Below are positions 4,492-32,425 of a DNA stretch of 32,425 nt, piece after piece. The first letter of the stretch is position 1. Each line of letters starts with the position of its first letter. The position numbers and the translations under genes were made by a program. This DNA is from Jimgerdemannia flammicorona (Eukaryota), in contig RBNJ01000348.1 in assembly GCA_003990765.1 (NCBI GenBank), positions 1 through 32,425 of the forward strand. Direction: 5' to 3'. The notes under the pieces were generated by a model. It had not been told where the DNA came from and ran no database searches. It saw only the letters and a program-made list of their open reading frames with translations.

Positions 4492-4953
4492 ATTGAGATA
4501 ATAACTACTGATACAAGTACCAATCTGCATTCATATCTGACTACTTCAACTATAATAAAAAAACTAAAAAACACAATCTGTACCTCCAGACAACTCTTGA
4601 GATTGAATAAATAACTCCACTATCTAAGTATACATATATAATATAAAGAATAGCTATCAGCTTACTACAATCCAGCAATACATAGTACCATAATCTATAG
4701 AAGATATATAGTGTAATGGTGACCCCAGAATGATGACATCAGCACAGGAGACAGTCTTTTCTTATAAGTCACCAGATCAGAATACAAGAAGATCATATGG
4801 TATATGAGATGAGCAATGATGACCAACTATGAGTCATTGTGACCACAGTACAAGCATCCTGAAGAATATAAAAGAAGGATCAAGAAACTGCAGTAGCAGC
4901 AACCAATAAGAACCACCAATCCCAAATTAGCTCAAAGACTTACTATAAATGAA

Positions 4954-5790
4954 ATGCCTGCTGCCCACCAAACCTCAAGGTCAAGGAACCACCAAGGTAT
5001 CTTAGTTGAAGAAAGGATGTTCCAAGACATCAGAAGAGCCATGAGGACCTGCTCAAGAAGAACTCCTAGTGTCAATCTGAGTACTACAGACCCCTATCAC
5101 TTTATCCTCTACCACTGTGAAATGGAAACAAGGATCACCATTGCTACCGAATGCCTCCAAATGTGGCAGGAGTATGAAATAGGAAATCTTCTCTGCCGGG
5201 AGTTCCCACAGACCAGCACTCAAGAGCTACAAGATGCCACTCTCATGGATATACACAAAACAAGGACAGCTAAGAAGATCCATCAGATCTTCAGGCATGT
5301 ACCATAGTCGATTCCCAACTTGGAGTATGTTAGAGTCTCAGATTTCAGAGATCTGTCATCCCATCATATCAATGCACTAGAAGCCAGGGTGGCTACAGAA
5401 GCCCAGTCCACTATCACCCTCAATAGTGATGAAGTAGAAGACTTCTGGCACCCTATCCTCTAGGACAACCCAGACCAATTCCTGTAAGAGTTGATCTCAG
5501 TATTCCAAGGCCCTAGCATCTGGGTTAGATCTCCCTAAGACCCCACATTTGTCCCCTATTTTGTAGAAGAGAACCTCATAGACTGGAGAGCTCCAGATCT
5601 TATTCCCAATTTTCCCGCCATCAAATGTAATGATGTCATCAGCGATGACATCATCCTGCACAATATTGAAGTATATGAAACACATGAAGTATATGAAATG
5701 GATGACCTACATGACAAATTCATGGATCTCATCTCCTTCAGTGATGATAATGATGATGAAGCCCCCATAATCCTGAACTTTTTGCTCTAA
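4954..5790 (+). pseudogene. LTR-encoded ORF, 278 aa when reconstructed, unknown function with an acidic C-terminus
   Basis: Single frame MPAAHQTSRSRNHQ...DEAPIILNFLL* with four internal stops. Each is a sense codon (TGG, CAG, CAA, CAA) in the 3' LTR copy. Confidence 0.8.
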
Positions 5791-5948
5791 GTTCTTTATT
5801 AAACTGAATAATACCAGCACCAGTATTCTGATGTGATACTGAATTATACCAGCATCCTGAACCTGTACAACCATCAGTACCAACTCTAGAACTTAGTAGT
5901 TTTAATTATTGGAATTTATATTTAGCTTTATATCTTAATTATATTTTG

Positions 5949-5981
5949 TATAAATACCCCTCTTATTTCCTCTGAAATAAA
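5949..5981 (+). promoter_or_regulatory. Element B LTR TATA box (TATAAATA) and downstream AATAAA
   Basis: TATAAATACCCC at 5949 and AATAAA at 5976, both conserved in the 3' LTR. A similar TATAAATA(C/A)CCC occurs in the C LTR (22213) and D-family LTRs (16832, 30429). Confidence 0.6.
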
Positions 5982-6191
5982 GTCAATCTTCTCAGTGAAA
6001 TATACATACTTCCTTGCAAGCAATCTAAGAGATAACAAGACAGTTTAAAGATAAGAAGTTTGAGGACTATAAGACCTTGGGAAGGTACTCCAATAAGAAC
6101 TTGCTTATAACAAACTTGAGTTAGTCTAAGAGATATACCTTGAAGAGAATCTAGTATATTTGAAGGACTCAGTAACTACTATGTGACAACT

Positions 6192-6308: not shown

Positions 6309-8030
6309 ATGGAAATGCATCCCCCCACATTCTATAGATATACTACTGAAGAGTCAATCCTGACCTTCATTGAAGACTTTGAACAATTTGCTGCCATACA
6401 AGCCCTTGGTGTGGATGCTCAATTGGCCCTTCTACCAGTCAGCCTCAGAGGACCTGCCAGAGATAAGTTCAATGCAGCCACTATTGCTAATGCTGGTATA
6501 GCAAAACTTGCCAATATGAAGACCTTTCTCAGAACAATATATTATACTGAAGAGATCAAGTAAGCTCTCAAGGATCAACTCAATACTATCTGCCAGAGAC
6601 TTAGTGAAGATCCCAACTCATTCTATACCTGAATCTGCCACCAGATTATCTTGGCTAACTATAATGACTGCCTCAAGGAACAAATAGTAGATTCAACTTT
6701 CCTTAAAGAAGTTTACCCTGAAATTGCCCTAGCAATCTGGTCTATCCCAGCTGCACTGACCCTTGATCAGAAAGTGGTCTTTGCACAGAGATATTGGACT
6801 GCCAGACACTTTGCCGAATACTCAATGGAGAAAATAACTGGCATCAAGATGGAGCTATCAAAGCCAACTAGTATCTTACCTGCCATAGTTGTAAACAGAC
6901 AACCAACCCCACCTACCCCCAAGACAGCCAAAGCTGACCCAGTGGAAGAACTTGCCAAGCAGTTTGCTGAGATGACTGTACACCTTAGTGATATTGTTAA
7001 AGAAGTCCAAAGCACCAACAGGAGACCAGTGCAGAGATTTGCAGCTGCTACAGAAGAACACAATATCACATGCTTCAGATGTAGAGAAGAAGGCCACTAT
7101 GCAAAGAATTGCATGACTGAAACAAGATGCAAAGTCCAACCAAGCAATGCTAGCAGAACTAGAGAACAAACTAATGCAGTAGTCATTGAGGAGATTGGTG
7201 ACACTGATGATGAAGAATACTATGAGGAGCTTGAATTCTACTCTGCTACTGAAGGTACCAGAACCCAGTCCAAGCTCTATGATAAGAAGAGCAACAGCAA
7301 GCCAGTTGGAAGACCAAAGAAGACTCCAGCCATCACTATTCAAAGTAAGACCCAATCTGAGGAGATTGATCAAGACATGAAGTTAGATAAAGCTGCCCAT
7401 CAAATTATTGAAGGCACTACTCCAGTCTCAGGAGAAAGCAAAAGTAAGAAGGAACAGAAGCTGTGCAAGACCAAGATCCATCAGTATGACATCTACAAGG
7501 ACCTCAAGGAACAGAAGGTCAATGCTACTTTTGGACAACTAGCTGAAGTCTCTGCCTTCAGACAGCAGTTGAGAGTAGGACTTGTAACTACTGCTAAGAA
7601 TCAAGAGTACAAGATTGTAGAAGCTCACAATACACAGGAAGAATCTGAGAACTCAGGTGAAGAATCCAAAGACCAGTACAAGACATTAGCCTATACCCCA
7701 TGTCAGATCAAAGATTGTATCTTTGATGCTATCATTGATACTAGTGCTGGAGGATACCTCATGAGTAAGAAGGCAATTGACTGCCTAGGCTGGGATATTG
7801 AAGAGTCTACCAAGATATGAGCTACCCTACTTGGCAAAATCCGAGAAGTCCCCATCAAGATAGAAGGAGCTACCATCCCAGTAGACATGATTGTTACAAG
7901 TGCCACCAACTATGACATCCTCATTGGCAACCAATAGCTTCACAAGGCCAAGGCCATCATTGACCTCAATGCCCAGAAGATGCAGATCAATTATAGAGGA
8001 AGAAAGTTATGAGTCTCTATTAATGTCTAC
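6309..8030 (+). pseudogene. gag: Element B gag (capsid-like, CCHC knuckle) and aspartic protease in one frame
   Basis: Zinc knuckle CFRCREEGHYAKNC; protease motifs AIIDTSAG (DTG-type) and YDILIGN. Several in-frame stops. Confidence 0.9.
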
Positions 8031-8129
8031 AAAGGAGTTCTACCAGATATGGAGGAAGGAGATGAAGAAGACACAGAGGTCTTCATACACTTGGTGAACA
8101 AGAACAAGAATAAGACATCCAAGCTCACA

Positions 8130-8237
8130 GATGAGCAGTAGTATAACAAAATTATCAATGACTATGTCCCTCAAGGAAGATGTCTCTATGGTACTAGAAT
8201 GTACTGCTCTGAACACCTGAATAACTGCTGGTCCTAT
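8130..8237 (+). other. Element B small Cys/His module (putative zinc finger)
   Basis: DEQ*YNKIINDYVPQGRCLYGTRMYCSEHLNNCWSY, homologous to 24346-24450 and 18156-18263. Confidence 0.7.
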
Positions 8238-8377
8238 ATTAGTGAAGTAGGAAAATCTGCCAACAGAAATACAAACAAGAAGCTGCTGAAGCAAAAAGGA
8301 AAGCTGATGAAGATGATCAGCCCCCAGAGCTCCAAGCTGACAGTAATGATAAGGAGGAACAAGAATCAGACATCACC

Positions 8378-8788
8378 CTCAAGGTCAAGAAGTTTCACCC
8401 CAAAGCCAAGATCCCAGAATATAAGACTGAAGGAGCCATAGAAATGGACCTTGCCAGCATTCAAGATACTACCCTTGAACCACAGACCACCACTCTACTT
8501 GGCACTGGAATTGGAGTCAAGCTGCCAGAGAACCATGCCAGAATTATCAAGACTAGAAGCAGTCTGGCCAAAAGTGAAATCTCAGTTGAAGGAGGAGTAA
8601 TTGACCCTGATTACACTGGTGAGATCTTTCTCATAGTCAGAAATCACAACTACACCACCCCCTTCGAAGTCAAGAAGTATGACAGGATTGGCCAGATGCT
8701 GATCCATGAAATCAAGAAGCCCAAGATCATTGAAGCCATTAAACACATCAAGACCAAGAGAGGAGAACAAGGCTTTGGATCTACTGGA
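8378..8788 (+). pseudogene. dut: Element B dUTPase domain (between PR and RT)
   Basis: Trimeric dUTPase motifs MDL, TRSSLA, GGVIDPDYTGEI, RIGQML and RGEQGFGSTG. Confidence 0.95.
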
Positions 8789-11772: not shown

Positions 11773-13318
11773 TGTAATGGTAATCCCAGAATGATGACAT
11801 CAGCACAGGAGACAGTCTTTCCTTATAAGCCACCAGATCAAAATACAAGAAGATCATATAGTATATAAGATGAGCAATGATGACCAACTATGAGTCATTG
11901 TGACCACAGTACAAGCATCCTGAAGAATATAAAAGAAGAATCAAGGAACCACAGTAGCAGCAACCAACAAGAACTACCAATCCCAAATTAGCTCAAAGAC
12001 TTACCACAAATGAAATGCCTGCTGCCTACCAAACCTCAAGGTCAAGGAACTACTAAGATATCTTAGTCGAAGAAAGGATATTCCAAGACATCAGAAGAGC
12101 TATAAGGACCCACTCAAGAAGGACTCCTAGTGTTAACCTGGGTACTGCAGACCCCTATCACTTTATTCTCTACTACTATGAAATAGAAACAAGGATCATC
12201 ATTGCTACCGAATATCTCCAAATGTGGCAGGAGTATGAAATAGGAAACCTCCTCTGCCGGGAGTTCCCACAGGCCAGCACTCATGAGCTACAAGATGCCA
12301 CTCCCATGGATATAGATAGCTAAGAAGATCCATCAGATCTTCAGGCATGCACCATGGTTGATTTCCAACTTGGAGTATGTTAGAGTCTCAGATTTCAGAG
12401 ATCTGTCATTCTGCTATATCAATGCACTAGAAGCCAGGGTGACTACAGAAGCCCAGTCCACTATCACCCTCAAAGTGATAAAGTAGAAAACTTCTGGCAC
12501 TCTATCTTTCAGGATAACCCAGACCAATTCCTGCAAGGGTTGATCTCAGTATTCCAAGGCCCAAACATCCAGATTAGATCTCTCCAAGACCCCACATTTG
12601 TTCTCTATTTTGTAGAAGAGAACCTCATAGACTGGAGAGCTCCAGATCTTGTTCCTGATTTCCCCACCGCCAAACATAATGATGTCATTGATGATGACAT
12701 CATCCCATGTGACATCAAAGCATGCAAAATACACAAAGTACACAAAATGGGCAACCTATATGATGAATTCACAGATCTCATCTCTTTCAGTAATGATGAT
12801 GATGATGAAGACCCCATAATCCTGAACTTTCTGCTCTAAGTTCTTTGTTAAACTGAATAATACCAGTACCAGTATTTTGACATAACACTGGATAATTCCA
12901 GCACTGGTATTCTGAGGTGATGTGAAATTATTCCAGCACTGGTATTCTGATGTGACACTGAATTATACCAGCATCCTGAACCTGTACAACCATCAGTGCT
13001 GACCCTGGAACTTAGTAGTTTTAGTTATTAGAATTTATATTTAGCTTTATATCTTAGCAACCATTGAATTATATTTTATATAAATACCCCTCTTATTTCC
13101 TCTGAAATAAAGTCAGTCTTCTCAGTGCAATATACATACTTTCTTGCAAGCAATCTAAGAGATAACAAGACAGTTTAAAGATAAGAAGTTTGAGGACTAT
13201 AAGACCTTGGGAAGGCACTCCAATAAGAACTTGCTTATAATAAACTTGAGTTAGTCTAAGAGATATACCTTGAAGAGAATCTGGCATATTTGAAGGACTC
13301 AGTGACCACTATATAACA
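11773..13318 (+). repeat. Element B 3' LTR (1546 bp) including a second copy of the LTR ORF (12015-12839)
   Basis: Preceded by the PPT, with TG...CA ends. Carries two extra copies of a ~35-bp repeat relative to the 5' LTR. Confidence 0.95.
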
Positions 13319-14221
13319 GCAGATAGTGAATTTGATAAAAGCAAAGATAATATATCTCTTCTTTGCCCACCAACTCTATATCTAGCATATAAGATAGATG
13401 ATATCCTATAGGATAGTAATATAGTCTCAATGTATTATTATCAGAGTAAATAAGGAGAAGTAATCCAAGAACTACTCTTCCTAGATAACTACTTTATCAG
13501 AGATAATATCATTGATAGTAATATCATTAAAGACTATCTAGACAGTATCTAAATCTATAGATAGCTTAGCAGTTATTAGTATAATTAGATTAGCCTTATA
13601 TAATGTGACTGTATACTAACTCAGCAGTTAGACAATCTCTTAATATGTCAGTTTATACTTATACTATATGACTGCATTCTGACTCAGCAAGGTACTAAGT
13701 ACTATATCTATATTAATATAGTCTAGATAGTATAAATATCCCCTCTCCCAGATCTCAGAATCTCAGGCTTAAACAATTGAAATATAACTCCTGAACACTT
13801 CTCCACAATATCTCTTCATATAACTACTCCTAGTATAGCAATATCATGAATAGCAAATAAATCTATTTAATAACTTACAAACTACTCTTAAGTAAATCCA
13901 CACTCTATTAGATCCCACTCTTAACCATATTATGAAATTTCCTAATTGGGTATTGTCTGCAGTGATACATCAATTCAACTAAGCTGATCTTAGTTTCTTA
14001 AACTTCTTAAAATATAGAAAATCCTGAACATCCAGAACTAGTTCAAAAAAGGACTTTGGTTGAGATATTAATCCAATCTTGAAATCAATAAGTATAGAGG
14101 ATATACTCTATATAAAATTGATCTTGACCTAAAGAAAACAGTCTTCTAGAATATTCAGAACTTTTAGAAAACTCTTCCAGAACTACATAATAGTACTTTT
14201 ATAAGTAACCCTCTTACAACT

Positions 14222-15167: not shown

Positions 15168-17650
15168 ATGGCAAACTAATATATTCTAGACCTCACAGCC
15201 CAGGTAGCCATAATGGTAGCAACCATTACTGCCTTAGCTGAACAGACCCAACTAACAAAAAGTCTGAGTCTACCTACCTTCAATGGTACTGTATAAGAAG
15301 TCCAAAGCTTTATTAATATAGTTGATACTAATTTTTGAAGCCAACCAATAGACTAATGAGTGAGTTGCTGACTATCTTCTGATAAACAATTAAGACCATA
15401 CTCTACAATAACTCTTTACTACTACTATAGTCTATGTCTATTAAGTTATTATATTCTTCTGAAGATCTGCCAAAGAATGGTAGCAAACTCTTTCTAAAAA
15501 ACTCCTCACATAGGACATCTGACCTATAGTCATTGCCCAAAATGTAGCAAATAATGCCCCAGAATATAAAAACTATCCTGCAGCCCCTGGACTCAAATAA
15601 CTCATAATTGCTCAATACTACAGTAAAACTCTATAATCTCAAATTTAATATATATAGTAAGAAGAAATTCAAAACCTTCTATAAAAAACTTGAGTCACTC
15701 CTGAATACTATTGGTCTAGAATATATTACTAATGATAAAGCATAAAATGGTATAAAAGTAGATTATTTATTTGATACATTATCTGAATAGCTTATAAGAA
15801 AAATCTGAGAACAAGAATGCCTAGTTGTAAGCACACAATCTCCAAGCTACCAAAATCACATGTCATCCTCAGAACTAATTTGGAAACCACATGCAAGACT
15901 ACAAAACAAGTTACTGAAGAGATTATCTGATTATACAAAATATGCTAGCAAATATGAGAATCTACCACCAAGATACAAAAATACCAGAAGAAGTATTACA
16001 ACTATAAGACCAACTCTGAACCTCTATAACTAGTTTAGTATACTATACTATTACAAAAGGAAACCAAAAGTACCAAACTCAAACCAAGATAAGAAGGACC
16101 CTATCTCATCCATCAAGAGTTTATGAACTACACTTATCAAACTCTAGACCAAGATATACTGCAACTATACAAGACCTCATTACTTAGCAGAAGCAAAACA
16201 CATTTGAACAACTCTGTTTGCTCTATATATATCACCTCTATTGGAGAGTGACAGATGCTTCATCTGAACTCAAGAAAGCCGACATTGTTGAAACCAATCT
16301 CAAGCCATCCATGTAATAGATATTACTACTAGAAATTGTCTCAGATTACAGAAAATATCATTTCTGAGAGGTTCAAACCCCTAGCTGTGACATTGGGAGC
16401 CCTTGCCCTAGACAAGGATGACCAGTCCTTGCAAATATACCAGCAGGCCAAAAAAAAAAAGAGAACCAAGACCTGTTATCCTTATACAACCACTGCTACC
16501 AAGAACAGCCTTAATCTTGCAAGAGATAGAAGTGACAATACCTTGAAACTGATGATGTCAGAAGTCAGAAAACTGCTCAGACTTTGCTAGTGATGATGTC
16601 ATCAATAGTGATATCATCAAAGACTAACCAGATAGCACCTAAATCTATAAATAGCTTAGCAGTCATAGTATAGTTAGATTAGCCTTATATGATATGACTA
16701 TGAACTGACTCAGCAGTCAGATAATCCCTTGACATGTCAGATCACACTTGTACTATATGACTGCATTCCAACTCAGCAAAGTACTAAGTATTACATCCAT
16801 ATTCAGCATAGTCCAGATAGCCCCTCACTAGTATAAATACCCCCTCCCCCAGACCTCAGAATCTAAGACTTGAACAGACTTGAATATACAAGAACATTCC
16901 TAAATACTTCCCCACAATATCCCTTCACACAACTACTCCTAGTATAGCAATATTATGAATAGCAAATAAACCTATTTAATAATCTACAAATCACTCTTAA
17001 ATAAATCCACTCTCCATTAGATCTCACTCCTAATCCCATTATGAAATTTCCTAATTGGGTATTGTCTGCAGTGATATGCTAATTAAACTAAGCTGGTCTT
17101 AGTTTCTTGAACTTCCTGAAATATGGAAAATCCTGAACATCCAGAACTAGTCCAAAAAAGGACTTTGGTTGAGACATCAACCTGAACTTGAAATCAATAA
17201 GCATAGAGGACATACTCTATATGAAATTGATCTTGACTATAAGAAAACAGTCTTTCAGAATATCCAGAACTTCCAGAAAACCCTTCCAGAACTACATAAC
17301 AGTTACTCTAAAAAGTAACCTTCTTACACTAGTTGGTTGTGATCACCAATAATAGTACCTAGCAAGAATCAAAACTATGGTCAAGTGAATTCTATCAGCT
17401 GGACCAATTCTGTCTTGAAGACAATTCAACAATAAGGAAAAGACTTAGACAAAGAAAAAAAAACCCAAGCATGAAGCATCCCAAGCTCCCTCCACATCTA
17501 CCTCTTGAATATCTCAAAATCCTGAACTTACTCAGCTAAGTACCTTCAAGAAACTCACTGAAGGAGAAAGAAATGAACTTTATAGAAGTAGAGTATACTT
17601 CTATTGCTGAAAAACAGGATATATGACCAGTGTCTACTCTAATCAAAAAC
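15168..17650 (+). pseudogene. gag: Element D gag, interrupted by the solo LTR at 15826-17328
   Basis: LPTFNGT..EV..FI at ~15270. Decayed knuckle LTEGERNEL.RS..YFYC*KTGYM.SVY. at ~17554-17640. Confidence 0.7.
15826..17328 (+). mobile_element. Solo LTR of a D-related family with a 5-bp TSD (CTAGT)
   Basis: TGTAAG...CTTACA ends, CTAGT at 15821-15825 and 17329-17333. The first ~90 bp and last ~740 bp match the D LTR. Confidence 0.9.
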
Positions 17651-17711: not shown

Positions 17712-18125
17712 AATACTAGACTTGTCAAGTTAAGGTCAACTGCCAAGACCCCAATCAAAGAAAGTCAAAAAGCAGCTAGATATGACCTATATATAGCCAA
17801 AGAAGCTACAGTTTCCAACTGAGAAGTTAAGCCAGTCTATATAGGAATCAGCATTCAAATTCCTGAAGAATATGTTAGAAGGATATGCTATTACAGCAGC
17901 CTAGTACTAAAAGAACTCTCAGTAGAAGGAGGAGTTATTGATAAAGATTATATAGGTGAAATTATTGTCCTTATTCAAAACTATAGTTGAACACTCTTCA
18001 AGATCCCCATTGGTTTCTGTACTACTCAGATCCTATTTGAGAAAATTGAACCAACTCTGATAGTCAAAGAAGTCTCTGAACTACTACTTACCATCCAAGA
18101 ATCTAAAGGATTTGGCTCATCAAAT
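17712..18125 (+). pseudogene. dut: Element D dUTPase domain (between gag and PR)
   Basis: AARYDLY, YSSLVLK (RSSLA), VEGGVIDKDYIGEII, TQIL and KGFGSSN in one frame. Confidence 0.9.
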
Positions 18126-18155
18126 AAGGCCTCAGCCCAATCTACTATGAATAAA

Positions 18156-18263
18156 GAAGAACAATTCTACAAGAAAATTAAAGATGGATTTGTACCAAGT
18201 AGCTAATACCCCCATAGTGTTAGAATGTACTCTTCCTGAATAATCAATAATTGCTTCTCTTGT
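18156..18263 (+). other. Element D small Cys/His module (putative zinc finger)
   Basis: EEQFYKKIKDGFVPSS*YPHSVRMYSS*IINNCFSC, in frame with the dUTPase. Confidence 0.7.
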
Positions 18264-18339
18264 GTCAATGGACTGGTTCAAAGGAGAACCAATAGAAGGA
18301 AAACTCCTATAACTGAAATTACTACTATTAGATCAGACA

Positions 18340-21300
18340 AACTGCTTATACTCTAAGCTTTTATCAACTGAGTACCTGTCAAGATTATGATAGATAGCAG
18401 TATCTCAGGCAACTTCATCAATGAAGAAACAGTCAACAGACTCAAGATTCTGACCTCTCTGGTACAATAGACTCAAGCAGTTGTCATAGCTAATAGAATA
18501 TCTTATATCATTAGTAAGGAAGTCCACAACCTACCCTTCTGAATTGATAACTACCATACTCCAGATTATATTACTTCCTAACAATAAAATCATCCTAGGG
18601 ACTCTATAGTTGAAACAAGAGAACCTTATGATTGATTAGGTAAACTATTCTCTAACTATCAAGAAGAGACACCACAATTTCAAACTGTAAGATAAAAAAG
18701 ACCCACTCAGTTCTAGTGACTCTGGTCTAAAGATTATCTACATTAATAAGCTATAACTTAAGAAATTGGCCAAGAAATAACCTCTCTTTACTATCTCCAT
18801 CTGACCATCCAAAGAAGAACCTGAGAACCTTGAAGAAGACTTTTTCAAAGTTGACAGCCATGTTAGACCCTTACTCCAGAAATTCTAAGATATGTATATT
18901 CCCAAAGAAACTCCTGAAAGATCTACCCCCTAAATAAGCAATAGACTATACCATCAAGACTATCCCAGATGCCAAACCAGCCTTCAAGTCAATCTATCAT
19001 ATATCTCTAAGAGAAATTGATATACTTAAGAAAAAGATTGATGAACTCTTAGAACAAGGATTCATCAGACCTAGTGTATCACTATATAGTGTACCAGTCC
19101 TCTTTATTGTCAAGAAAGGAGGAGATCTATGAATATATATTGATTACTATAACCTCAATAAATAGACTATTAAGAACTATTGCCCACTACCCCAAATCAA
19201 TGAAATATTCAATAGACTTACCAACCCACAATTTATGAGCTCTTTTGACCTACAAAATAATTACTGGCAAATTATCATAGAAGAAGAAGACATCTATAAG
19301 ACCATCTTCCAAACTCGCTATAGATATTTCAAGTTATTAGTTATGCCTTTTGGCTTAACTAATGCTCCTGCAATCTTCTAGATACTGATGAATACCATCC
19401 TATACCTGTATCTAGATAAATTTATTATTATCTATATTGATGACATTCTAGTCTTTAGCAAAACCCTAGAGGAATATCTTAAACATCTTAAACTAGTACT
19501 ACTGAAGCTTCAAGAAAACTAACTTTTTACAAAACTCAGCAAATGTAAATTCCTCCTAAAGGAAATTCAATTCCTTAGACATATATTATTATGCTCAATA
19601 AAATCAAAGTAGACTCCAGCAAAATCTCTGCAATTAAGAATTGACCCAGATCCAAGAAGCTGAAAGACCTCTAGTCATTTCTGAGACTAGCAAACTATTA
19701 CTAGCAATTTATTGCCAACTTTACCAAGATCACTATTTCTCTTATCCAAATGACCAAGTATAGTAAGAAAGAAGGATAGCCTTAGACTATAAAATAAGAA
19801 AAAGACTTCAACAATCTTATAAATTGGAGACCTGAACAAAATATAGTCTTTCAAGTACTGAAAGATATCTTGATAACTACTCTAGTACTTTAAGCAATAA
19901 ACCCTGTCCTGTCTTATGAAGTTACTACTAATGCCTCTGACATAGCTCTTAGAGTAGTGCTTATACAAGAAGAATATCCTGTAGTCTATCATTCTCACAT
20001 GTTCAATGATGCTAAGATCAATTATGTAATCTATGAAAAGGAAATATTAGTTATTATAGACACTCTGATCAAATGGCAACCATACCTAGAAGAAGTATAC
20101 TTCACTATTTTAATAGACTATAAATTATTAGTCAACATCAAGACTCAGGCTATCCTTTCTTGAAAGTAAGCCAGATAGATGAAAGTCCTCACCAACTTTG
20201 ACTATAAAATCCAGTATCACTCTGGTAAAGAGAATATTGTCACTGATATAATCTCTAGACCACAAATTGAAAAAGTCATCCAAACTCTCACCTTAGTTAT
20301 CAACTCTATCATAGAATAATTATTGCAGCATATGTTGATGATAAAGAGGCCCAGACACTCTAAGAAATTCTGAGTAGTAATGATATTGATAAATACTTTT
20401 AGTATCATTAATATCAACTAAAGGACAATGCCATCTACTACAAGGACAGATTGTATATTCTAAATAATCAAGATCTCTAAAGGACTATCCTATTTGAATA
20501 TCATAATACTCCTACAGCTAGATATTTAGGATTTGACAAATACTATAAAGTTATTTTCTGAAACTTCTATTGACCCTATATGGCAAATCAACTAAAGACC
20601 TACATCACTTTCTATAATACCTGCCAATATAATAAGTTCTCAATACTAGTAAGACCTAGCCTACTCTACCTCATCCTAATACTATCTACTAATTGAGAAT
20701 AAATCTCTATGGACTTCATTATATAACTACTCTAAACTAAGAATGAGAAAGATGCAATTGTTGTCTTCATGGACTATCTCAGAAAACAAGTCTATTTTGT
20801 ACCAACTACTATTACTACAATAGTATTAAATATAGCCACACTCTTATTTGATAATATTTTCTACTATTACAGTCTTCCTAAGATTATTATTAGTAACTAA
20901 GATCCAAAGTTTACTAGCTACTTTTGGAAAGCCCTATATGCATACCTTAGAATAAAACTTGTACTATCTATAGTCTTTTATCTCAAAACTGATAGTCAAA
21001 CTGAAAGAATGAATCAAACTTTAGAACAAATGCTAAGGAACTATATTTCCTATAGACAAGATAATTGGTATAAATATCTTACTACAGTTGAGTTTATCTA
21101 TAATAACAGCAAGTAAGCCTCTCTTGGATAACCCTATTCTTTATCAATACAGGACAAAATCTGAACACCCCTCTGATACTCATTAGAACTACCAATGAAC
21201 CCTCTACTATCAAAGTCATTGAAAAATTTCTGCACTGAATACACAACTTAAGCCAGATTGTAATTAAGAACTTATCTTAAGCTTAAGAATAACAATTACA

Positions 21301-21750: not shown

Positions 21751-21962
21751 TCTTTGAACAACTGAAATCTGAACACTTCAGTACCTATTGGTCAATATTA
21801 TATACTACTACTCCTGAATATTAAGTACTCTTATAATTATTATAAACAAAATCAAGAACTCAGTAAGATAAGACAAAAGAATACCAACTCTCTAGAAAAA
21901 TAGCAAAACTAAAAGTCAGCCTATTCTTCCCATATTACTAATGAGAAATGAGGCATAGATAT

Positions 21963-22434
21963 TGTGACAGTATAGCCAGATTCGGAAGAAGGAAATAGGG
22001 AACAGACACTTGATTACACCCAGTCTCAAAGTAGTATAGCCACATAGTTAGCAGTCTCTGATTTTGCCATTTGCTAAATATTTTGCAAAGTGCAAGATCG
22101 AGCCTCTTGATATAGTATAGTATTTCACAACTGGTGAAATATTTCACAAAGTGTTAAATGACTCATAATTTAGCCACGTAACCCAGTAACCATCTCATAG
22201 CTAGCAAACTTATATAAATAACCCAGTATCTTTGAGTGAATAAAACCTCAGATCGAAATAGTTCAAAGCAAAGAGATAGCAAAGGAACTAGTACATAAGC
22301 CTGCAGGCAGATATACTTCGAACTCACCCACCCTCCCCTACAACTTCAAGAGACTCTGCAAGAGTCAGAACAGTCAAGTTTTCAAGATATAGAAATCTGA
22401 TATACTTTCAAGAGTAAGCATCCACTATGTTACA
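21963..22434 (+). repeat. Element C 5' LTR (472 bp)
   Basis: TGTGACAG...atgttaCA. Direct repeat of 28193-28638. Confidence 0.95.
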
Positions 22435-22548: not shown

Positions 22549-24245
22549 ATGGATATGAGACCACCAGTATTCTATAGATATACCTCAGACAAATCAATCA
22601 TCACCTTTATTGATGATTTTGAGCAGTATGCTGCTGTAAGGACCCTGACAGCAGTACAGCAAGTAGCCCTCATGCCCTTCAGCCTACGAGGTCCTGCCAG
22701 AGCAGTATTTACAGCTGCAACCCATACAGAAAATGATGCTGATGCTATACTGACAGCATAGAAGACCTGGCTCTGAAATACATATTATATAGATGAGATC
22801 AAGCAAGCCCTAAAGGATCAGCTCAATACAACATGCCAAGGAATGAGCAAGGATCCAAATACATTCTCTACCAGAATTCAATATCAGATAATCCTTGCAG
22901 ATTATGCTGCTGCTATCCGAGATCAAGTAGCCGAAGCAACCTTCATAAAAGGAGTCCATCTGGAAATAGCCATGGCTATTCACTCATCACCAGTAATTCT
23001 GGATCTGCCACAAAAGGTCACCTATGCTCAGCGATACTGGATAGCCAGACACCCACAAGACTATACAATGGAGAGAGTTACAGGAGTCAGAATCGAGACA
23101 CCTAAGTCAACCAGTGTGATCCCCACCATAATGATCAATCGAAACACACCTCAGCCAAAAGCTACAGAGTAGCAAAAGAACAGTGACCCTATGGAGGAAC
23201 TCACCAAAAGGTTTACTGAAATGACATGTAGTAAAGGAAATCCGAGAAAGAGATCGCCGTCCTGTTCAGAAGTTTGTGGCCACTTTAGATAAGAAGAAAG
23301 GTATCTGCTATAGCTGTGGAGAAGAAGGCCACTACTCCTATGAATGCATGAGCGAAATCAAGCACAATGCTCAACCAAGCAATACTATATGAAATAAGGA
23401 GCAGGCCAATACAATCACCTTTGAAGAAATTGGAGATTCTGATGAAGAAGAATGGGAGGCCTATCCTGCTCAGACTACTAAGAAGGATGTTCGCAAACAA
23501 CCCTACAAGAGACCGCCAGGAAGACCCAAGAAGAACTCAGTGGAAAAGCGGATGGAAACTGCCACAGAAAGCCAAGCCGAAGAGATGGACCAAGATATAG
23601 AGCTAGAGCAAGCAGTTCAAGATATCATCCGAGGAACCACTCCAGCCAGTGAAGGAGAAAAAGAAAAGAAGCTTTGCAAGACCAAGATCTTCAAGTATGA
23701 TATCTCAGTCAACAAAAGGTCAATGCAACCTTTGGTCAGCTTGCAGAAATCCCAACATTCAGACAGCAAATGAGGTTTGGACTTGTCGAAACAACTAAGG
23801 AACAAGGATGGAAGATAACTGAGGCCAATAATGCTCAAGAGGACTCAGGAGAAGAAAGTAAGGACAATTGCAAAACCTCCGCTTATGCAATATGCCAAAT
23901 CAAGGATAGAATCTTTGAAGCCATCATTGATATAGGAGCAGGAGGATGTCTCCTCAGTAAGAAGGCAGTGGACTGCCTAGGTTGGGATGTAGAAGAAGCA
24001 ACTAAGCTAGTATTCGTCACAGCTGATGGCACAAGAGCCACACCTCTGGAAAAGATCCAAGATGTTCCCATCAAGATTGGAGGAGCAACTATCCCAGTAG
24101 ATGTAATTGTAACCAATGCCACCAACTATGACATCCTCATTGGCAATTAATGGCTTCACAAAGCCAGGGCAGTAATTGATCTCAATGCCCAGAAGATGCA
24201 AATCACCTACTGGGGACAGAAGATATGAATTCCCATCAATGTCAA
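22549..24245 (+). pseudogene. gag: Element C gag and protease
   Basis: Homologous to B gag. Knuckle CYSCGEEGHYSYEC (~23306); protease motifs AIIDIGAGG and YDILIGN. Confidence 0.9.
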
Positions 24246-24345
24246 TAAAGGAGTCTTGCCTGATATGGAGGAAGAAGAGAGTGAGCAAGAGGAAGCTTAT
24301 ATAGTGACCACTCCAAAGAAGTAGAAAGTTGGATGGATGAGTGAA

Positions 24346-24450
24346 GAAGAATAGTACAAGAAGATTGTAAAAGGTTATGCCCCACAAGGAGTCTGTCCTC
24401 ATGGGATTAAGATGTACTATATGGAGCATATCAATGATTGCTACCAGTGT
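24346..24450 (+). other. Element C small Cys/His module (putative zinc finger), best-preserved copy
   Basis: EE*YKKIVKGYAPQGVCPHGIKMYYMEHINDCYQC. Confidence 0.75.
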
Positions 24451-24579
24451 ACCATCGGAATCAAGAAGATCCACCAGGAAAGAAGGCAGAAACCCCTCGA
24501 AAAACAGATCAGGGAAGAAGAGAAGGAGGAAGATGATAAACCACCAGCTCTTCTAGAGGATAGTGACAATGAAGAAGAA

Positions 24580-24996
24580 ATCAAGATCAAGATTCGAAAG
24601 ATCCACCCTGATGCAGTCCTACCAGAATACAAGTCAGAAAATGCAGCCAGAATGGACATCACTATAGTAGAAGAGACTATACTAGAACCCCAGACAACTA
24701 CCCTACTTGCAACTGGACTAGAAATAACCATTCCAAAAGACCATGTCGGGATCCTCAAGACAAGAAGCAGCCTGGCCAGAAGTGAAATTACCATCGAAGG
24801 AGGAGTCATCGATTCAGACTATACTGGAGAAATTCTGCTCATTGCCAGGAATCACAATTCTACAATTTCATTCCCAGTCAAGAAGAAGGACTGATTGGCA
24901 CAGATGTTGATCTTCCCAATCATACAACCAAGGATCATAGAAGTCAAGAATCTAGAGGAAACGAAAAGAGGAAAGAAAGGATTCAGATCCACAGGA
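24580..24996 (+). pseudogene. dut: Element C dUTPase domain (between PR and RT)
   Basis: AARMDI, TRSSLA, GGVIDSDYTGEI, AQML and RGKKGFRSTG. Confidence 0.95.
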
Positions 24997-28170: not shown

Positions 28171-28192
28171 GATTATCTATTCAGGAGGAAGT

Positions 28193-28638
28193 TGTGATGG
28201 TATAGCCAGATTCAGAAGAAGGAAATAGGGAATAGACACTTGATTGCACCCAGTCCCAAAGTAGTATAGCCACATAGTTAGCAGTCCCCAATTTCGCCAT
28301 TTGCTAAATATTTCGCAAAGTGCAAGATCAAGCCTCTTGATATAGTATAGCATTTCACAACTAGCAAAATATTTCGCAAAGTGTTAAATGACTCATAACT
28401 TAGCCATGTAACCCAGTAACCATCTCATAGCTAGCAAACTTGTATAAATAACCCAGTATCTTTGAGTGAATAAAACCTCAGATTGAAATAGTTCAAAGCA
28501 AAGAGATAGCAAAGGAACTAGTAAGCCTATAGGCAGATACACTTCAAACTCACCCACCCTCTCCTGCAACTTCAAGAGACTCTGCAAGAGTCAGAACAGT
28601 CAAGTTTTCAAGATACAGAAATCTGATGTACTTTCAAA
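28193..28638 (+). repeat. Element C 3' LTR, lacking the last ~22 nt
   Basis: Matches the 5' LTR up to ctttcaa. The terminal gagtaagcatccactatgttaca is absent. Confidence 0.9.
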
Positions 28639-28876: not shown

Positions 28877-30892
28877 TATAAGTATACAATCTTCAAACTA
28901 CCAAAATCACACATCACTCTCTGAATAAATCTGGAAATCACATATAAGATCACAAAGCTAAGTCAAACTAAAGTCACAGAGTACAAAGCTGAGTCAACTT
29001 AAAGTTACAGAACATAAGATTTATACAAACAGACTCTTATCAATCAGAACTGAATGTATATATACTGAGTACTCAGATATATCAAAATAGAGAACTACAA
29101 TAAACTAAACAAACAACTATAACTCTTAAACATATATACAAATATGATAGCTGAGATCTGCAACTGCATCTGTACTAATATTTGGAATGCTATTATCAAC
29201 TGAGCTACATCTCCCCTACCCCTCATGAATATCCATAGCCTAGCACCTCTCTACTTCATAAAAGCCTGATGGAATATCCTAAACATGCTCAGTAAAGCTC
29301 ACTGAATTAGACAAATCTCAAGCTACTATCAGATCAGCTGTCTCCTAGAAGATATGGTCAAATATCACTATAATACAAATACATATTACCTAGATATCTC
29401 AATATCAGAAACTCATCATCTGCAAATACCAAGAACTTTTTTATGAGTATAGCACCTTTATTTCCCATCTTTAAGTCACTACCACTAAAATAATTGCCAC
29501 CCTATCTTATAACTAAATTGAGAATTTGATATAAGAACTCAATCTCAAATATATTAAGTATATCCAAACCATAGACAGAACCTTTCTACACCCCAATGAC
29601 TATATCCTGCAAATATCCCAAGTTGGATATGCTATAAAAGATATCTATAATATAATCTAGTTCAATAATGACAAAGTAGAAGATAATGATCCCTCTGATA
29701 CTGACATAACCTTCAGTCAAGGATTCCTGCCAGTCTTGATCACTCCACTAACTTTGTCAATAAACTTACAATAGTTTATAACTACCTATAAGACCTATTG
29801 GGATAATGACCACTGGTATAAGTACTAACCTACATTCACATCTGTCTACTTGAACTACAATGAAGAAACTGGAGAATATAACTTGTACCTCCAGACAACC
29901 CTTGAGATCAAACCAATAACTCTACTACCTAAGTATATATAATATATATAAAGAATAGCTACCAGCTTACTATAACCCAGTAATATATAGTGCTATAACT
30001 TATAGAAGATATGTGGATAGTGAATCCAATAAAAGTGAAGACAATGTACCTCTCCTTTACCCACCAACTCCATACTCAGCATATAAGACAAATGATATCC
30101 TATAGGATAGTGACATAGTTCTAATATATTATTACTAGAGTAAATAAGGAGAAGTAATTCAAGAACTACTCTTTCTAGACAACTACTTTATCAGAGATAA
30201 TATTATTGATAGTGATATCATCAAATTACTATTCAGACAGTATCTAAATCTAGCAGTTATGTATTAGTATAATTAAATTAGCCTTATATGATATAACTGT
30301 ATACTGACTCAGCAATCAGATAATCTCAATATATCAGTTCACACTTGTACTATGTGACTGTATTTTGACTCAGCAAGGTACTAAGTACTACATCTATATT
30401 TAGCATAGTCCAAATAGCCTCTCATTAGTATAAATACCCTCTCTCTAGATCTCAGAATCTCAGACTTAAACAATTGAAACATAACTCCTGAATTCTTCCC
30501 CATAATATCCCTTTATATAACTACTCCTAGTATAGCAATATCATGAATAGCAAATAAATCTATTTAATAATCTACAAATTACTCTTAAGTAAATCTGTAC
30601 TCTATTAGGTCCCACTCCTAACTATATTATAAAATTTTCTAATTGAGTATTATCTGTAGCAATATGCTAATTCAACTAAGTTGATCTTAGTTTCTTAAAC
30701 TTCCTAAAATATAGAAAATCCTGAACATCCAGAACTAGTCTAAAAAAGAACTTTAGTTAAGATATCAACAGAGGATGTACTTTATATGAAATTGATCTTG
30801 ATCTAAAGAAAACAGTCTTTCAGAATATCCAGAACTTCCAGAAAACCCTTCTAGAACTATGTAATGGTACTTTTATAAGTAACTCTCTTACA
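28877..30892 (+). repeat. Element D 3' LTR (2016 bp)
   Basis: Follows the PPT, starts TATAAG (TGTAAG in the solo copy) and ends ctcttaCA. Confidence 0.85.
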
Positions 30893-31274: not shown

Positions 31275-31663
31275 CTTGGAATATATCTCTACAGAGTATA
31301 TGATTGCTAATTCACTTATAAAAGCTCTTCTAAAGCTAAAGTTCAAGCTATATATTAAAGAAATAGATCTTATGAGTAATATACCAGTTTAGTGGTTAAT
31401 CACAGGATACTTTTTGGGCTCTAAAAAACCTCTCTTACTGTATTTGTATTATTTATATCTATATTTTACATTCTTACTATATATATCTTTTATCTATAAG
31501 TAAATTTTTATAGGTATTTTAGATATTTCAAATATATTTTAGAATATTTTCTGATCTACAAAAATTTCTTAGATATAGGATTTTATAATAGTAATTCTGG
31601 GTTATATGCATTTCTAGTTTTTGTATATATTGTATTACTTTTTACTCTAGTTTGTATTTTTAC

Positions 31664-31665
<2 letters not shown>

Positions 31666-31726
<61 letters not shown>
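31666..31726. repeat. Poly-T tract (61 nt)
   Basis: Direct observation. Confidence 0.95.
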
Positions 31727-31727
<1 letters not shown>

Positions 31728-32217
31728 AGTTATATATCTTATTGAGCAGGAGTGTTGGGATGATAACTCAATATATTAATATATAACTTATATCATTCTA
31801 TCAGATTTATATCATTCATTAGTAATATATAAAATATATAACTTCAAAAACTTCAATAAATACTTCTCTCTTTAAATAAAGCTCAGAATATTTTTCTTAA
31901 AAATTTTCTAAAAAATATTTAAACTTATATAGTATTTTTTCAAATTACTTAAATCTACTAAAATATTTTAAATTTTATTATTATTTATTTTTTTATATAA
32001 TTTCTAAAATAATAATATTTTAGTCTAGTTTATTTAATTAGTTATATCTTTTTTTAATCTTTTTTATTATTTTTATAATCATTTAATATTTTTTAAATAT
32101 CTTCTCAATATTAAGCAATAGCTAAAATATTTTTATCTCTTTTTAATATTAAGTATCTTAGCTTAGCTAATTATATAATATTTTAGTTATTCTTAACTTA
32201 AACTTATTTTAATATTA

Positions 32218-32219
<2 letters not shown>

Positions 32220-32301
<82 letters not shown>
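32220..32301. repeat. Poly-T tract (82 nt)
   Basis: Direct observation. Confidence 0.95.
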
Positions 32302-32305
<4 letters not shown>

Positions 32306-32425
32306 ATTAATATTTTTCTAGATTCTCCTTCAGATCTTTCATAAATATTCTCTTTATCTTCTTAAATAAAGCTCAGTATATTGTTCTTTTAAAAAATCTA
32401 CAAAACTTTTTAATTTTTTGTATCT

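Follow-up and report, generated by a model that had tools for sequence, protein, structure and literature searches.

What is the short Cys/His stretch that lies beside the dUTPase in three decayed retrotransposons of Jimgerdemannia flammicorona, and how has it kept that place while the order of its neighbours was reversed? The stretch under study is found at positions 18156-18263 of contig RBNJ01000348.1 (assembly GCA_003990765.1), which was analysed over 32,425 nucleotides, here called the window. It is still unclear (passages of PMC2864245) for what reason a dUTPase is present in some LTR retrotransposons and retroviruses, and in what way the enzyme is delivered to the site of reverse transcription. 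An accessory domain that stays beside the dUTPase despite a reversed order provides a concrete handle on the question of delivery.

We read the stretch as the decayed core of an unnamed Cys/His mini-domain of about 50 residues (the module), which is part of the Gag-Pol polyprotein in a small group of dUTPase-bearing Ty3/Gypsy LTR retrotransposons. Taken as a whole, with the zinc fold and the tethering role included, this explanation is in our judgment evenly poised between right and wrong. What is new is the small domain family; accessory zinc-type modules of retroelement polyproteins are already known.

Layout of the window

Repeat analysis and a Pfam scan of the plus-strand frames, with stops read as X, resolve the window into nested, decayed Ty3/Gypsy LTR retrotransposons on the plus strand. 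Elements B, C, and D display the hallmarks of Ty3/Gypsy (Metaviridae) elements in the Pfam map, that is, the Pol order protease (PR)-RT-RNase H-IN, a Gag knuckle, and LTRs, and flanking LTR pairs were found for B and C. The features of the three elements are as follows.

~4712-6188 and 11773-13318 (+), LTRs of element B
7071-7112 (+), CCHC knuckle of element B
7686-7964 (+), aspartic protease of element B (Pfam Asp_protease, E 4.9e-4; RVP_2, E 3.1e-3; both below curated cut-offs)
8112-8294 (+), Cys/His module of element B; one stop, P/H of C-P-H and last Cys altered, frame soon lost
8402-8788 (+), dUTPase of element B (Pfam PF00692, E 5.7e-24)
17596-17637 (+), Gag CCHC-type knuckle of element D, decayed, ~100 nt 5' of the dUTPase
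17742-18122 (+), dUTPase of element D (Pfam PF00692, E 9.9e-20), directly 5' of the module
18141-18314 (+), Cys/His module of element D (HMM envelope; core 18156-18263); two in-frame stops, first Cys lost
~18333-18700 (+), aspartic protease of element D, decayed, limits approximate, placed by alignment to P0016
19169-19576 (+), RT of element D (Pfam), followed by RNase H and IN
~21962-22411 and 28192-28637 (+), LTRs of element C
23303-23350 (+), CCHC knuckle of element C
23884-24213 (+), aspartic protease of element C (Pfam RVP_2, E 2.5e-8), upstream of the module
24328-24507 (+), Cys/His module of element C; one in-frame stop, all four Cys/His ligand candidates kept
24616-24996 (+), dUTPase of element C (Pfam PF00692, E 4.3e-24), 3' of the module after an acidic linker

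By sequence, the dUTPases of B, C, and D are assigned to the trimeric type, with PF00692 scores of 71-85 bits (cut-off 22), and Pfam also identifies RT, RNase H, and IN in B and C. The protease region of B is continuous, in the alignment, with the PR end of P0015, an intact relative from outside the window. That of D had no match in the Pfam scan; in P0016, a second intact relative, the protease is Pfam-positive at residues 143-259. The active-site stretch of the D protease lies at 18390-18416, and a frameshift occurs further 3'. Element D also has an SH3_Tf2-1 match and a weak chromodomain match (Pfam, E 0.0012, below cut-off), and the insertion site of C is just 3' of this chromodomain region.

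The nesting has left several further traces. A D-type LTR-like repeat is present in three copies (13554-14218, 16643-17327, and 30242-30892), the middle one of which abuts mid-Gag directly at 17335, so that D seems to lack a primer-binding site and the N-terminal part of Gag; such an arrangement points to two D-type elements, in tandem or recombined, with a common LTR. The flanks of B (4492-4707 and 13322-13531), when joined, correspond to an uninterrupted sequence at 29797-30225, immediately 5' of the third D-type repeat; the insertion of B was therefore into another D-type copy, in its 3' internal region. Positions 1-300 of the window are 93% identical to the Gag region of C at 22627-22926, which implies that another C-type copy extends beyond the left edge. 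At ~31590-32363, where the sequence is AT-rich (GC ~0.25) and a long T run is close by, there are arrays of short direct repeats with a spacing of ~9-13 nt.

The three copies of the module

The module is ~50 residues long and sits between PR and dUTPase in all three elements. The amino acid strings on which the original prediction was built were all found in the window sequence; that of C, which had been placed at 24346, is one residue short at its start and is in register from 24343. As had been claimed, the three copies align without gaps, and the order is indeed opposite, PR-module-dUTPase in B and C and dUTPase-module-PR in D, according to Pfam, BLASTP, and the placement of the D protease. 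When D is compared with C by BLASTP, the module forms a separate HSP (52 bits, E 9e-12, 20/52 identical), the dUTPases are 34% identical over 145 aa (E 2e-17), and no significant HSP is found for the proteases.

Intact relatives

A profile of the module only, built from the three window copies (HMMER), matched 11 proteins at E <= 0.001 among 1.84 billion representatives, seven of them at E <= 1e-10 and the best at 1.3e-17. A second search, with a 13-row alignment and restricted to proteins of 113-2000 aa in a 5.8-billion-protein collection, returned 11 proteins, three of which were new and 10 of which carry PF00692. All the outside copies come from short metagenome or read-assembly contigs, and two carry the source label "dUTP pyrophosphatase". 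The B-like fragment P0015 is intact, comprises the PR end, module, dUTPase, and RT, and is 83% identical to B; the D-like fragment P0016, likewise intact, comprises the dUTPase end, module, PR, and RT and is 74% identical to D across the dUTPase end, the module, and the start of PR. Both have the full C-P-H...C-x2-C pattern. A scan of metagenome contigs found only two loci (L001 and L002), and none of 37 pattern matches in viral contigs was confirmed as the module. A word-indexed protein search with the decayed C copy brought up no candidate with sufficient words in common.

An HMM made from ten outside sequences only hit exactly three places in the six-frame translation of the window (56, 50, and 83 bits), and the 13-row HMM reached no more than 2.9 bits in any of 20 six-frame sets with shuffled residues. 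As the region is short and flanked by charged linkers, and as the window copies contain stops, one might suspect that there is no domain here and that low-complexity linkers of decayed elements resemble one another by chance. This reading, to which we assign next to no probability, is refuted by the pairwise E value of D and C, the E values of the profile against 1.84 billion proteins, the distance between the scores in the window and those in the shuffles, and the confident AlphaFold2 models presented below. Judged by its sequence, the module is a real, conserved, and rare domain, and its HMM is a possible addition to transposable-element annotation.

Conservation and predicted fold

The consensus derived from the alignments is E-E-x-[WF]-Y-x2-[IL]-x2-G-[YF]-x-P-x-G-x-C-P-H-G-[IV]-x-M-Y-x7-C-x2-C, followed by a long helix. 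In alignments of 13 and 16 rows, the first and last Cys of the Cys, His, Cys, Cys series are invariant, and the P, the His, and the Cys in third place are each conserved in at least 90%. The exceptions at the His and the third-place Cys are Tyr, which is consistent with C:G>T:A decay. The sequence thus offers the four conserved Cys/His ligands that are generally expected of a zinc domain.

The AlphaFold2 model of P0008 (82 aa, stand-alone, from 13 sequences) has a mean pLDDT of 79; near the Cys/His core, at residues 21-70, the block means are 82-93. It comprises a helix (19-27), the C-P-H loop (36-38), a second helix (45-50), and the C-x2-C (51-54), which opens a long helix (52-75). In the model of the whole of P0004, the pLDDT is 84-90 in the module (211-260), where C-P-H lies in a small hairpin, and 75-94 in the dUTPase core (block means, residues 61-170), and falls below 50 in segments that flank the module at ~198-210 and 270-289. 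A confident module between segments of low pLDDT looks like a self-contained unit on flexible linkers. The four conserved Cys/His residues, the candidate ligands, are placed as in many zinc sites. We infer that the module quite probably folds alone around one zinc (Cys, His, Cys, Cys) and is flexibly linked to its neighbours.

Lys and Arg are frequent, as judged by eye in the alignment, on the helix after C-x2-C, and the linkers that follow are acidic; the K/R pattern may be a faint sign of binding. A predicted complex of three dUTPase domains, one module, and Zn scored 0.00 in two runs in which alignments were unused and the fold of the partner was uncertain, a result that speaks neither for nor against binding.

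Comparison with known domains and systems

The original prediction held that no such domain is known from canonical Ty3/Gypsy polyproteins, and no counterpart emerged from Pfam, PDB sequences, or the full-text literature searched. Pfam gave nothing for the window copies at E <= 10 except one chance-level row, no family was matched by more than two of the 13 members when these were searched singly, and the 13-row profile had 0 matches at E <= 10 among PDB sequences. Fold searches with the P0008 model gave a best E of 5.6 in the PDB (Foldseek), a best Z of 4.0 with 0 chains at Z >= 5 in a wide search, and a best E of 0.7 in BFVD; no known fold can be named for the module and none is excluded. 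In a protein atlas queried with P0008, the best feature score was 0.87, and no Pfam family was common to the 30 matches.

Two zinc motifs that occur elsewhere in the same polyproteins should be considered. The zf-CCHC knuckle (PF00098) is rejected, as the module has the spacing C-x-H-x12-C-x2-C, not C-x2-C-x4-H-x4-C, and had no match to it at E <= 10 in the three window copies and 13 members that were covered. The integrase HHCC domain (PF17921) consists of two His, then C-x2-C ~23-32 residues later; here too the spacing is wrong, and there is no match over the module at E up to 10, though true IN regions match elsewhere. Both the Gag CCHC and the IN HHCC are, like the module, short Cys/His motifs of the B, C, and D polyproteins, but they differ from it in spacing and position.

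C-x-H ... C-x2-C is the ligand pattern of the second RING site, and the P0004 model, where a hairpin carries C-P-H and a helix begins with C-x2-C, has a treble-clef-like layout. RING-type matches were limited to one of the 13 members (zf_RING_Vps8_fungal, E 0.0023 to 0.01; zf-C3HC4_3, E 0.066), all below curated cut-offs, and the fold search did not exceed the Z value given above; compared with RING and treble-clef domains, whose fold it may still have, the module lacks a first zinc site and a fold match. The ZAS-type anti-sigma zinc motif is H-x3-C-x2-C. A His three residues before C-x2-C is kept in the B/C-type copies and in P0003, P0005, P0007, P0008, and P0010, and is replaced in P0001, P0004, P0006, P0011, and P0016; anti-sigma chains reached only Z 3.0-3.4 in the fold search, within noise.

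One of the closest analogies is found in the betaretroviruses. The M-PMV NC-dUTPase, as described in PMC1802613, is a homotrimeric fusion whose zinc-knuckle NC domains bind oligonucleotide. The module resembles this arrangement as a small candidate zinc domain flexibly joined to a trimeric retroelement dUTPase that is encoded beside PR (PMC1802613 and PMC4531489), and the D-type relatives P0004, P0005, and P0034 likewise have a CCHC knuckle before the dUTPase. It differs in its Cys/His pattern and in its position, which is on the PR side of the dUTPase or N-terminal to it.

Fungal Gypsy elements with a dUTPase are reported in passages of PMC2864245 from Postia placenta (PosPlaTy3-3/-4/-5), Phanerochaete chrysosporium, and Tuber melanosporum, with the dUTPase at the N-terminus of Pol, at its C-terminus, or between PR and RT; its role is there said to be unclear, and independent acquisitions are suggested. 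Two of these placements are represented here, by B/C and by D. The zinc motifs named in those passages are CCHC and HHCC only, and no module of the present kind is mentioned. Searches of full-text literature likewise brought up no account of a Cys/His motif next to the dUTPase of a retrotransposon, though one may be mentioned elsewhere, for instance in the 2008 paper on P. chrysosporium.

Occurrence beside dUTPase and protease

Twenty copies of the module were counted, namely 15 protein clusters (P0001-P0011, P0014-P0016, and P0034), two DNA loci, and the three window copies; P0012 and P0013 were left out as members of the P0010 cluster. In this sample, which is small and may be biased, a dUTPase adjoins the module in 16 of the 20 copies: 12 of the 15 protein clusters (P0001-P0006, P0010, P0011, P0014-P0016, and P0034), L001, and 3/3 in the window. 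The dUTPase comes before the module in 12 of these and after it in four (P0002, P0015, B, and C).

No dUTPase is visible in P0008, P0009, L002, and P0007. The first two (82 and 63 aa) are too short to show whether one was present. L002 (2-1120, +) is a near-open frame of 373 aa with two in-frame stops and a clean module; neither dUTPase nor PR is present in the ~112 aa before the module and the ~210 aa after it. P0007 has the module with no dUTPase or PR in the available sequence. The L002-type frame has a Pfam match to SCNM1_acidic (30-33 bits, cut-off 27), and a second motif, W-C-x-C-x2-C, is common to L002 and P0007. Further Cys-rich sequence was seen in the frame; a search with the plain open stretch of L002 gave no usable match. 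The frame may be a host gene or another mobile element, and the presence of the module in a protein with no dUTPase raises the question of where the retroelements obtained it.

Seen from the side of the enzyme, the association is rare. Proteins of 176-560 aa include 1923 relatives of the P0004 dUTPase at E <= 1e-10, and among the 120 nearest that were listed the module HMM was positive in three. At least 11 retroelement dUTPases are without the module; these include dUTPase-PR fusions with ~30 residues from motif V to PR (P0127, P0050, and P0066) and PR-dUTPase-RT types (P0040, P0055, P0068, P0093, P0035, P0046, P0102, and P0106). The proposal that the module accompanies dUTPase therefore stands as far as most copies and both orders are concerned, and the module is not as frequent in elements that lack the enzyme; it fails as a statement of exclusiveness, given L002 and P0007, and the module is not a general partner of retrotransposon dUTPases. 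The tie between module and dUTPase is neither exclusive nor reciprocal.

PR adjoins the module in every copy long enough to show a PR. The module is before PR in P0004, P0006, P0011, P0016, P0034, L001, and window D, and after PR in P0015, P0002, and window B and C. Because it lies beside PR wherever PR is visible, a partner of dUTPase and a partner of PR are inseparable here. The module could be a spacer, assembly, or regulatory domain for PR (e.g., in dimerisation or cleavage order), with the dUTPase merely in the same slot, and it is in keeping with this that the order swap leaves the module between PR and dUTPase. We nevertheless think it unlikely: the module occurs with no PR in L002 and P0007, low-confidence linkers separate it from PR in the AlphaFold2 model of P0004, dUTPase-PR elements without it exist, and the D and C proteases have no significant BLASTP match when their modules do.

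Common descent or exchange

The module was originally proposed to have been shuffled between lineages. Between P0016 and P0015, identity is 47% in the module (47 aa), 42% in the C-terminal half of the dUTPase (92 aa), and 38% in RT (144 aa), so that the module is the best conserved of these pieces; RT is 34% identical between D and C. Since the divergence of module and dUTPase is close to that of RT, a recent exchange between lineages need not be invoked, and shuffling is not required. The divergences fit common descent with rearrangement, and the difference in order between B/C and D would then be a rearrangement around the module.

A dUTPase tree was calculated from 62 rows, comprising all rows with a module or from retroelements, 16 named cellular rows, and one in four of the remainder; the branch of the decayed D is very long. 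One branch separates the nine module-bearing dUTPases, of both orders, from the 53 others, with an SH-aLRT of 85 in a quick tree and UFBoot 94 / SH-aLRT 74 in a careful tree. In an AU test, a tree in which the B/C dUTPases are joined to module-less PR-dUTPase-RT elements was not rejected (p-AU 0.62), and this constrained tree was 9.2 log-likelihood units above the quick free tree. The data are compatible with a single origin of a dUTPase+module cassette, which would later have been rearranged.

Such a cassette could also have been inherited, and rearranged, with no functional tie between its parts. The module would then be a general-purpose domain whose job is unrelated to dUTP hydrolysis, such as host-factor or nuclear-import binding, oligomerisation through the long helix, or counter-defence. 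Its presence in the frame of L002 and P0007, which lacks both dUTPase and PR, argues for this, as do the careful-tree branch and the fact that most retroelement dUTPases have no module. We still give it a low probability, as the alternative placement of the B/C dUTPases was not rejected, nothing points to any particular other role, and a module that was kept beside the dUTPase through rearrangement, if rearrangement took place, suggests a functional link.

Decay of the copies

The deviations of the window copies had been described as transition-type, and comparison with intact relatives bears this out, most of them being C:G>T:A. Counted as minimal codon changes from the protein sequences of relatives, a single C:G>T:A change can explain 7/7 differing positions in the core of B (positions 1-36), 11/14 over 46 residues in the D module, and 5/14 in the C module. 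The same bias is seen in the elements as a whole, with which the changes in the module agree: transitions account for 134/138 differences between the LTRs of B and 29/29 between those of C, the changes are found mostly at CpG, CpA, and CpC, with few at CpT, and the observed/expected ratio of CpG over the window is 0.09. The signature of cytosine deamination in these sequences is strong and looks like RIP or methylation-driven decay.

Candidate functions

The original prediction had named a nucleic-acid tether, a trimerisation aid, and an anti-defence factor as candidate roles. The function that we prefer, tentatively, is that of a tether. After processing by PR, the module would be retained at the C- or N-terminus of the dUTPase and might anchor the enzyme, either on nucleic acid or on the reverse-transcription complex. 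The zinc knuckles of NC in the betaretroviral NC-dUTPase fusion would be a parallel. This reading draws on the tolerance of either end of the dUTPase on flexible linkers, on the analogy with NC-dUTPase, and on the K/R-rich helix seen by eye. A more far-reaching version, which we consider rather improbable, is that of a new zinc-binding family that would couple dUTPase to the reverse-transcription/nucleoprotein complex or to a host factor (e.g., in uracil-directed restriction), that would have been permuted around the enzyme, and for which the L002-type frame would be a non-retroelement protein and a possible cellular source.

A similar stretch in Gag

One further Cys/His stretch was seen in the Gag of D, at 17335-17403 (+), where C-[PD]-H-x2-W-C is followed by a conserved helix. 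In intact relatives (P0005 ~139-184 and P0034 ~138-183) it reads R/G-C-P-H-x2-W-C-F, like the start of the module, and the module HMM has a weak partial match to residues 150-163 of P0005. Perhaps it is a second Cys/His motif, perhaps a vestige of how the module arose.
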